DNA from: a virus
Taxonomy: Duplodnaviria > Heunggongvirae > Uroviricota > Caudoviricetes
DNA: 47,754 nucleotides
Direction: 5' to 3' (one strand)
Virus record (IMG/VR): IMGVR_UViG_2778261224_000004
The translations under genes and the position numbers were made by a program. The notes beneath the pieces were generated by a model, which saw nothing but the letters and a program-made list of their open reading frames with translations, did no database searches and had not been told where the DNA came from. The stretch's first letter is position 1; each line of letters begins with the position of its first letter. Below are positions 43,744 to 44,444 of the stretch, one piece after another.

Positions 43744-44043
43744 TTAGACATGGAACGCTACTCGCTTTCCTGTAGGAAGCTCAACATCCAGGCTTAATTT
43801 GCCTCCCATAGCTTCAACGTAACGCTTTAATGTCGCCAGCTTTAAATCATTTCCGCGCTGCTCCAGCTTTGTTACTGCTGGCTGGCTTATACCCATCGCC
43901 TCAGCAACCTGTTTTTGTGATAACTGGAGTTCTTCACGCATCATCTGCAAGCCGACCTCAAGAATCATCTCATCTGCCATTTCTTTAATTCGCGCCTGGC
44001 TTTCAGGTGAACGGCTGGCAATCACCTCATCTAATGTTCTCAT
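43744..44043 (-). CDS. higA: HigA-family antitoxin (HTH_XRE)
   Basis: 99-aa ORF downstream of toxin gene; ..LSQKQVAEAMGISQPAVTKLEQRGNDLKLATLKRY.. Confidence 0.75.
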   Translation of the reverse strand: MRTLDEVIASRSPESQARIKEMADEMILEVGLQMMREELQLSQKQVAEAMGISQPAVTKLEQRGNDLKLATLKRYVEAMGGKLSLDVELPTGKRVAFHV

Positions 44044-44396
44044 TACTTGCTCTCCAGTGTGTTCAGATGTGCTGCAAACTCATCCTCAGCTATACGCACC
44101 AGTTTTTCATAAAACCGTTTATCGTTACTTTTGTCTCCTGCACAAAGAACGATGGCCCGGCGAATCGGATCGAACGCATAAAAGGCTCTTATCGGACGGC
44201 CAGAAAACTGAACGCGAAGCTCTTTCATATTTTTGTACCGAGAACCTTTTACGGTATCGGCATATGGCCTGGGTAACTCAGGTCCGTAAACCTGTAGCTT
44301 TTTCAAATCAGCCAAAACCTTTTCCTGAAGAGCGTCTTCTTGCTCATTTAGCCAGTCGTCAAATCGCTGGCTAAAAAGTACCGTCCACATGCTCAA
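44043..44396 (-). CDS. higB: HigB-like toxin (RelE/ParE superfamily, toxin-first operon)
   Basis: 117-aa ORF; ..RAFYAFDPIRRAIVLCAGDKSNDKRFY.. pattern; ATGA overlap with antitoxin. Confidence 0.75.
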   Translation of the reverse strand: MSMWTVLFSQRFDDWLNEQEDALQEKVLADLKKLQVYGPELPRPYADTVKGSRYKNMKELRVQFSGRPIRAFYAFDPIRRAIVLCAGDKSNDKRFYEKLVRIAEDEFAAHLNTLESK

Positions 44397-44399
44397 TCC

Positions 44400-44444
44400 T
44401 ATAACCTGTAGTTTATATCACTAACTATATAACCTGTGGGTTAT
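44400..44444 (-). promoter_or_regulatory. Two palindromic operator-like sites upstream of higB
   Basis: TATAACCTGTAGTTTATA (44400-44417) and TATAACCTGTGGGTTATA (44427-44444). Confidence 0.5.

Follow-up and report, generated by a model that had tools for sequence, protein, structure and literature searches.

What role does the pair of small genes near the end of an Escherichia coli phage-plasmid play, and is it an addiction module for the element that carries it? The DNA considered here is the whole 47,754-nucleotide (nt) stretch of IMG/VR record IMGVR_UViG_2778261224_000004, hereafter the window, and both genes lie on its minus strand, toxin gene first. A sequence-only reading had described them as an autoregulated HigBA module stabilising the element as a plasmid. 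Our analysis identifies a type II toxin–antitoxin (TA) operon of the GP49-domain HigBA kind (Tad-Ata-like), whose most probable role, in our considered and rather confident judgement, is post-segregational killing (addiction) on behalf of the phage-plasmid. This reading is built on the gene order, the protein domains, the predicted fold, a promoter-like site, the anatomy and covariation of the operators, purifying selection on both genes and linkage to repA. Sequence and synteny, the predicted fold, the operator layout and the genomic context all support the autoregulated HigBA module of the earlier reading, with the qualification that it belongs to the GP49/Tad-like branch.

The genes and their translation and termination signals are laid out as follows:

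44043–44390, minus strand: toxin gene, 115 amino acids (aa) plus TAA stop, ATG start at 44390 (open reading frame (ORF) call, PF05973, phrog_3445, AlphaFold2 (AF2) model, Foldseek)
43744–44043, minus strand: antitoxin gene, 99 aa plus stop (ORF call, HTH_3, phrog_2339, profile matches to the Protein Data Bank (PDB))
44397–44400, minus strand: AGGA, Shine-Dalgarno of the toxin gene, 6 nt upstream of the ATG and abutting operator O2 (see below), read from the sequence
44050–44055, minus strand: GGAGAG, Shine-Dalgarno-like site of the antitoxin gene within the 3' end of the toxin gene, 8 nt before the ATG, read from the sequence
43715–43737, both strands: hairpin GTAAGGCCCC-ATT-GGGGCCTTAC, 10-bp stem, GC-rich, terminator-like

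The toxin-first order of the sequence-only reading stands, with the toxin gene running from 44390 to 44043 and the antitoxin gene from 44043 to 43744. In the ORF listing the longest toxin frame reaches a TTG at 44396, over which ATG 44390 was preferred as the start because of the annotation by the prokaryotic genome annotation pipeline (PGAP) and the position of the Shine-Dalgarno. The ATGA overlap that had been claimed for the junction is correct as to its letters and not as to its meaning. In the toxin frame the junction reads AAG TAA TGA G, i.e. two stops in tandem, and since the TAA lies one codon earlier and pre-empts the TGA, the antitoxin ATG uses the last A of the TAA and the genes overlap by 1 nt (TAATG), not by 4 nt. 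Together with the internal GGAGAG, this junction suggests that translation of the two genes may be coupled. The hairpin begins 7 nt past the antitoxin stop, scores as a terminator in both directions and is common to the TA operon and a convergent 94-aa gene (43426–43710, plus strand). Small, co-oriented, adjacent genes with one promoter-like site upstream and a hairpin downstream conform to the generic architecture of type II TA operons.

Upstream of the toxin gene, the regulatory region comprises three features:

44424–44452, minus strand: sigma-70-like promoter, −35 box TTGAAA (44452–44447), 17-nt spacer, −10 box TATAGT (44429–44424), 10 of 12 positions matching
44428–44445, no strand: putative distal operator O1, TATAACC-TGTG-GGTTATA, perfect 7-N4-7 palindrome, 18 bp
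44400–44417, no strand: putative proximal operator O2, TATAACC-TGTA-GTTTATA, 6/7 palindrome (one mismatch), 18 bp

By consensus match, TTGAAA-17-TATAGT is the sole promoter-like site upstream of the toxin gene. O1 occupies the spacer between its −35 and −10 boxes, reaching two bases into the start of the −10 box, and O2 would cover the predicted transcription start (placed from the −10 box) and extend to the Shine-Dalgarno. The two TATAACC-N4-GGTTATA-type palindromes reported from the sequence were recovered, and with up to one mismatch they are the only sites of their motif in the 47.7 kb (0.01 expected). Likewise, the window holds no other pair of similar 7-N4-7 palindromes whose starts are separated by 15–40 bp, and none of 100 random sequences had such a pair. 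When up to three mismatches were allowed, seven sites were obtained against 1.9 expected, a number reached in one of 100 shuffles; the five additional sites, each with three mismatches, were treated as chance matches, and an antitoxin regulon elsewhere in the window was rejected. A helix-turn-helix (HTH) antitoxin combined with palindromes overlapping the promoter is what type II TA operators generally present, the binding itself being a prediction. The range first assigned to the module, 43744–44444, contains both genes and O2 but misses the last base of O1, the −35 box (44447–44452), the hairpin and the end of a conserved cassette that reaches 44479.

To place this architecture in its family, we examined 80 loci whose toxins are 54–98% identical to the window toxin. 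An antitoxin homolog directly follows the toxin gene in 77 loci, the remaining three having an interrupted predicted toxin frame. The junction type seen most often among these relatives is a genuine 4-nt ATGA overlap. In the 110 nt upstream of the toxin gene, 7-N4-7 palindromes pairing at six or seven of their seven positions occurred once or more in 73 of the 81 regions (the window and the 80 loci) and at least twice in 42 regions, compared to 1.4 regions expected from shuffles. Measured from the start codon, these palindromes lie close to −55 and −28 in many related loci. In a recurrent layout, a TTGAnn box precedes a first palindrome, the right arm of which contributes TATA to the −10 box, and the next palindrome ends at the Shine-Dalgarno.

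The family operator consensus is TATAAGC-N4-GCTTATA, and its variants alter both arms symmetrically (AACC/GGTT in the window, AAAC/GTTT and TAGAT/ATCTA elsewhere). Moreover, the half-site follows residue 59 of the antitoxin, located in the predicted recognition helix: lysine goes with ACC/GGT, glutamine with AGC/GCT and alanine with AAC/GTT. At this residue and its neighbours, the window has lysine, most relatives glutamine, the Buttiauxella group alanine and the Acinetobacter group the string SLSAIEN. Such covariation between half-site and helix is what would be expected if the antitoxin reads these palindromes, an inference that comes from loci which are not phylogenetically independent. Residue 59 and the half-site may even form a simple code preventing cross-regulation among HigBA copies in one cell, and the family-wide two-operator layout together with the half-site/helix link offers a basis for the design of binding assays and for the prediction of cross-talk.

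We analyzed the toxin at the level of sequence and predicted structure. It matched Pfam Gp49 (PF05973; COG4679) over profile positions 1–89 of 90 with 81.3 bits (cut-off 23.9; E=5.4e-23), the only Pfam family detected at E≤0.01 and notably separate from the Rts1-type HigB family PF05015, which gave no match at that threshold; it further matched PHROG 3445 'toxin' (E=2e-33) and stayed under the cut-off of NCBIfam TIGR02683 (upstrm_HI1419, RelE/ParE family toxin; 18.9 bits vs 62.85). Within the RelE superfamily, the toxin falls in the Tad/HigB branch as a member of the Gp49 family, and not in the Rts1 HigB family. The family itself is large, with 2385 cluster representatives at E≤0.001. All residues that are near-invariant among members 35–54% identical to the toxin are kept (G36, P37, E57, L58, R59, R68, F73, D74, R77, K87 and Y94), and its G64, invariant in alignment A1 (59 sequences; a second profile, A2, holds 76 sequences at 35–54% identity), aligns with G64 of the HigB encoded by IncC plasmids.

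The AF2 model, computed from 59 homologs, reached a mean predicted local distance difference test score (pLDDT) of 93.8 and shows a short strand, three helices, a RelE-like four-stranded sheet and a long C-terminal helix (residues 91–114). Using Foldseek, we found this model to resemble RelE of T. thermophilus (1.2e-4) and P. horikoshii as well as V. cholerae HigB2, the best full-length structural match being Streptococcus pneumoniae HigB (template modelling (TM) score 0.68–0.72). Given the fold common to RelE and ParE and the name 'RelE/ParE family toxin' assigned by PGAP, one may ask whether it is a ParE-like gyrase poison instead of an RNase. Down to E of about 0.09, however, Foldseek returned the RNase toxins RelE, HigB, HigB2, YoeB and BrnT and no ParE, all significant matches (RelE, HigB, HigB2, YoeB) being RNases, and GP49-domain homologs degrade RNA (PMC5906591, PMC8265657), so that we regard a gyrase poison as very improbable. 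Endoribonuclease activity would instead be anticipated from the fold and the homologs.

The antitoxin, described as an HTH protein by the sequence-only reading, indeed carries an XRE-type (COG5606-like) HTH_3 domain at residues 32–83 (E=4e-10) and matches phrog_2339 (E=1e-31). As a single sequence it matched HigA3 and HigA2 of Mycobacterium tuberculosis in the PDB, and a family profile built from 43 antitoxins of the related loci matched HigA2 (2.6e-10), HigA3 (6.3e-10) and S. pneumoniae HigA (1.8e-7), all ahead of HipB; V. cholerae HigA2 was not among the profile matches at E≤0.01. These alignments cover approximately residues 14–90, from the N-terminal segment to the beta-lid and including the GGxL motif, and the antitoxin would thus have the HigA2/HigA3-type order of N-terminal segment, HTH bundle and a beta-lid at the C-terminal end. 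Its N-terminal 30 or so residues are presumed to bind the toxin, and its C-terminal beta-hairpin, the 'beta-lid', is presumed to serve dimerisation.

How do these features compare with systems of established function? In a tblastn search against plasmids, homologs were found in 1981 of 72,556 records, including a 55%-identical IncC copy and Acinetobacter copies at 52–59% identity. The HigBA of IncC (A/C2) plasmids is the closest tested relative, with a toxin 55% and an antitoxin 47% identical to the window pair. It is likewise toxin-first, with lengths of 116 and 100 aa, the same G64 and two 7-N4-7 palindromes in its promoter; in contrast to the window, its half-sites read TATAGGn instead of TATAACC, its palindromes are spaced 16 bp instead of 28 bp, its genes lie 4 nt apart instead of overlapping, and its host is a large conjugative plasmid and not a phage-plasmid. 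IncC HigB is toxic in E. coli and rescued by HigA (Qi et al. 2021, PMC8265657). It was characterised as a ribosome-dependent RNase that lowers A-rich mRNAs in a translation-dependent manner and is inactivated by G64V, and the module lifts retention of pACYC184 from ∼88% to 99–100% over 70 generations (PMC8265657).

Ciprofloxacin also induces the IncC operon, whose promoter was proposed to contain a weak LexA-like box (PMC8265657). On this ground, the window module could be imagined as a stress- or SOS-linked switch, in which DNA damage raises expression and couples toxin activity with induction of the prophage or with the phage-plasmid's choice between lysis and lysogeny. The family comparison points elsewhere. 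The IncC promoter palindromes are not described in the published study, in which part of one was taken as the weak SOS box (PMC8265657). We located them as TATAGGT-N4-ATCTATA and TATAGGA-N4-ACCTATA at positions 1449–1482 of locus L085 (pKP-14-6-NDM-1); the second of them, identified by the family comparison as an antitoxin operator, is overlapped by the 'non-canonical SOS box' GATTGCACCTATATTAAGTA of that study. This overlap suggests that the published assignment merits re-examination, and the IncC 'SOS box' may in reality be a HigA operator. By eye, no CTG-N10-CAG was present in the window promoter, the nearest candidate, CTG-N10-CAC, lying inside O2; furthermore, stress induction of a TA operon is expected anyway from degradation of the antitoxin. 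A stress- or SOS-linked switch, which would use the same machinery, appears improbable to us.

Similar features recur in Acinetobacter baumannii HigBA1/HigBA2 (e.g. on pAB120), which like the window module encode a GP49-domain toxin first, followed by an XRE antitoxin (PMC5906591). The A. baumannii plasmid toxins found here are 52–59% identical to the window toxin, and the 59%-identical one may be pAB120 HigB2 itself. In vitro, HigB2 of pAB120 acts as an RNase; repression of the promoter is exerted by HigA, with HigB as co-repressor (Armalyte et al. 2018, PMC5906591), and the module stabilises an unstable vector (PMC5906591). S. pneumoniae HigBA (PDB 6AF3/6AF4) forms a heterotetramer, and its HigA binds several promoter palindromes (PMC7984235). 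Its HigB possesses a C-terminal helix, said in a figure legend to be found in that HigB alone (PMC7984235), as does the window toxin model. The two toxins are only 14–18% identical in the structural alignment, with no match at the sequence level. Four palindromes of another consensus occupy the S. pneumoniae promoter, compared to two in the window, and the catalytic residues of this HigB are R68, R73, F90 and K92 in its own numbering.

By sequence, the closest solved antitoxins are M. tuberculosis HigA2 (PDB 7EWC) and HigA3 (PDB 6LTY) (PMC8420761). The corresponding HigBA2 (Rv2022c/Rv2021c) and HigBA3 (Rv3182/Rv3183) have GP49-domain toxins, as in the window (PMC5906591); they differ in being chromosomal, their toxins are without a structure, and no binding to DNA was seen for HigA2 in vitro (PMC8420761). 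The prototype HigBA, of the Proteus vulgaris plasmid Rts1, and V. cholerae HigBA2 also combine a RelE-fold toxin, encoded first, with an HTH antitoxin, the Rts1-type HigB being of a different Pfam family, as indicated above.

Tad-Ata of Paracoccus pAMI2, gp49/gp48 of N15 and s045/s044 of SXT share with the window pair the Pfam family, the toxin-first order and the XRE antitoxin (PMC2701414). Pfam Gp49 takes its name from N15 gp49, and the N15 pair was placed in the Tad-Ata group (Makarova et al. 2009, PMC2701414). N15 is a phage-plasmid, as is the window element. Pairs of the Tad-Ata type are reportedly stabilising systems, going by the title of Dziewit et al. 2007. The relationship to N15 is remote: tblastn against N15 gave no match, and hhalign linked the pairs with a probability of 93% (toxin) and 97% (antitoxin) at ∼25–30% identity. 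N15 gp49 is shorter (103 aa), its alignment with the window toxin stopping short of the C-terminal helix, at residue 89 of the latter; one unrelated palindrome lies upstream of gp49. A close relationship to the N15/Tad subgroup, which had been expected, seems unlikely, as tblastn gave no match and the link is by hhalign only; the window toxin is of the same Pfam family as N15 gp49 and, from these comparisons, appears to be of a different subfamily.

The genomic context bears directly on what the module may do for its carrier. The first 77 nt of the window are identical to the last 77 nt (1–77 and 47678–47754), which indicates a complete circular contig with an assembler overlap and a true size of 47,677 bp. 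Its last 17.8 kb (30000–47754) are 99.9% identical to the E. coli plasmid p806883-9-2019b, on which RepA and ParA are encoded together with lysis functions and the head and tail proteins of a myovirus. The element itself, with its RepA and ParA, is a plasmid-borne prophage (phage-plasmid). The region is also contained in the Yersinia pestis-infecting phages vB_YpM_39, 41 and 44, where the toxin gene is annotated higB2. In complete genomes, 115 of 116 E. coli copies of the module reside on plasmids. The module lies 1.4 kb from repA and is contiguous with it in at least 54 of the 62 PLSDB plasmids of this repA type, a lower bound since some plasmid records are cut there.

Selection on the two genes could be assessed through a second copy, on the Y. 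pestis plasmid pPCP1:

43744–44479, minus strand: 736-bp cassette common with Y. pestis pPCP1 at 95.7% identity, reaching from the stop codon of the antitoxin gene to 27 bp past the −35 box

The pPCP1 copy (NC_005816.1, 5001–5735) adjoins pla; cassettes of this type occur in 52 Y. pestis plasmid records, and the cassette is also present on other small E. coli plasmids. Between the window and pPCP1, the ratio of nonsynonymous to synonymous substitution rates (dN/dS) is 0.07 in both genes, and both are under purifying selection. The genes differ by 2.6–3.0% and the stretch between Shine-Dalgarno and −35 box (44391–44452) by 16%, the regulatory region having thus diverged about five times faster. 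The changes hit the O2 left arm, which is degenerate in pPCP1, the −10 box and the Shine-Dalgarno, and possibly reflect retuned expression on a low-copy phage-plasmid versus a ColE1-type plasmid. The degenerate arm is all that could be cited for a decayed or domesticated pair in which only the HTH protein still functions, as a regulator, and it is nothing specific to that reading. With both frames intact, a dN/dS of 0.07 in each gene and every near-invariant toxin residue kept, including E57, R59, R68, K87 and Y94 as well as G64, we consider such a remnant hardly credible.

E. coli phage-plasmids and pPCP1 may have traded the 736-bp cassette as a discrete unit. Taken jointly, this exchange and the reading in which the residue-59/half-site code makes the IncC 'SOS box' a second HigA operator are advanced as a tentative pair of proposals, about whose combined truth we are more doubtful than convinced.

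Returning to the post-segregational killing module, we propose a model in which a single promoter would drive transcription of the toxin and then the antitoxin gene. The RelE-fold toxin would be expected to cut translated, A-rich mRNAs on the ribosome, and the N-terminal ∼30 residues of the antitoxin to grip it. An antitoxin dimer, held by the C-terminal beta-hairpins, would put two HTH units on each 18-bp palindrome; with O1 between the −35 and −10 boxes and O2 reaching from the predicted start to the Shine-Dalgarno, antitoxin binding is proposed to shut the operon off, the toxin probably being a co-repressor. Upon loss of the element from a daughter cell, the labile antitoxin would decay and the freed toxin would arrest growth. 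By analogy with its homologs, the window pair is credited with an RNase activity, with neutralisation and repression, with a labile antitoxin and with the stabilisation of plasmids. The module probably helps E. coli phage-plasmids of 47–49 kb and pPCP1 to persist without selection, which bears on curing strategies and on the therapeutic use of such phages.

Several points weigh against this reading. The promoter is assigned by consensus match only and is to be taken as putative. No solved structure matched the toxin by sequence when the PDB was searched with the single sequence and with profiles A1 and A2; the matches obtained, to miniGq and alpha-galactosidase, were spurious and were rejected, so that the toxin is tied to solved toxins solely through the comparison of folds. 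The AF2 model of the antitoxin is of low confidence (pLDDT 58, from a shallow alignment of sequences 87–100% identical); for this reason, only its secondary structure, tentatively helices followed by two C-terminal strands, was used, and we relied on the profile-to-PDB sequence match. As the element also has ParA, the module's share in stability may be small. Relatives in other genera lie mostly on large, apparently chromosomal contigs, from which it follows that addiction cannot be the family's sole role. In A. baumannii, deletion of the homolog left the native plasmid stable (PMC5906591). Finally, no paper on the window copy or on the pPCP1 copy (YPPCP1.08c/.09c) was found in the literature collection searched. 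For pPCP1, it yielded a transcriptomics paper, a paper on Pla isoforms and papers in which 'toxin/antitoxin' denotes pesticin and its immunity protein; the last were discarded, as was phage vB_YpM_HQ103 (PMC11177050), an unrelated 32-kb phage, as a relative.

The chromosomal relatives and the A. baumannii deletion could also favor a module in which the same machinery mainly protects host and element against other phages or competing plasmids, by abortive infection or exclusion, and not against loss. Prophage type II TA systems can serve phage defence. The category given to the toxin family in PHROGs is 'moron, auxiliary metabolic gene and host takeover', and the toxin matches the C-terminal 100 residues (the C-terminal third) of the PADLOC model NsnC at E=6e-7. 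As an assignment to a defence system this partial match was rejected, since it is confined to a domain and the neighbouring genes are without PADLOC matches. None of the PADLOC defence systems was matched in full, and no known defence genes flank the module, which is instead tightly linked to repA; in addition, the closest tested homolog, that of IncC, stabilises a plasmid (PMC8265657). Protection as the main role therefore seems unlikely to us, if worth keeping in mind, and post-segregational killing is retained as the preferred role. As a separate observation, the NsnC defence protein seems to include a RelE/GP49-like domain.

Little in this assignment is new, the family being well described and a 55%-identical member having been tested; sequences identical to the window genes are already annotated as RelE/ParE-family toxin, type II toxin or higB2 in more than 100 public records.

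A number of further observations concern the pPCP1 cassette and its surroundings. Directly upstream of the TA promoter, window positions 44457–44576 are 81% identical to pPCP1 positions 3614–3733 (locus L083, NC_005816.1), just upstream of pla. The order in pPCP1 is the 44457–44576-like stretch, pla and the TA cassette, with ATTTAACATAAYGG-like sequence at both junctions. This arrangement looks like a circle of TA cassette, upstream stretch and pla opened near 44479, and may offer a clue to the assembly of the pla region. A Y. pestis EV76-CN plasmid record (NZ_CP096668.1, 47,984 bp) contains five cassette copies, which would fit a pentameric form of the 9.6-kb pPCP1 better than a distinct replicon. 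Among the related loci, a cassette with a 98%-identical toxin was found on scaffold15 of a Bacillota assembly, 'Amphibacillus jilinensis' (NZ_JH976447.1, 9631 bp), whose size and content suggest a pPCP1-like contaminant.

Elsewhere in the window, the convergent gene sharing the hairpin (43426–43710) belongs to phrog_15590, of unknown function, shows a weak HTH/YdaS-like match in its C-terminal part and occurs neither in pPCP1 nor in the Yersinia phages. The sole tRNA gene (28377–28452, minus strand) has the anticodon CAT and is called tRNA-Met by ARAGORN, as opposed to tRNA-Ile by PGAP in the sister plasmid. Positions 38103–38181, a short way upstream of the ParA gene, contain two 7-N4-7 palindromes, both AT-rich and perfect (TTTATAT-AATT-ATATAAA and TATAAAT-ATAG-ATTTATA), which may represent a partition operator or centromere-like sites.

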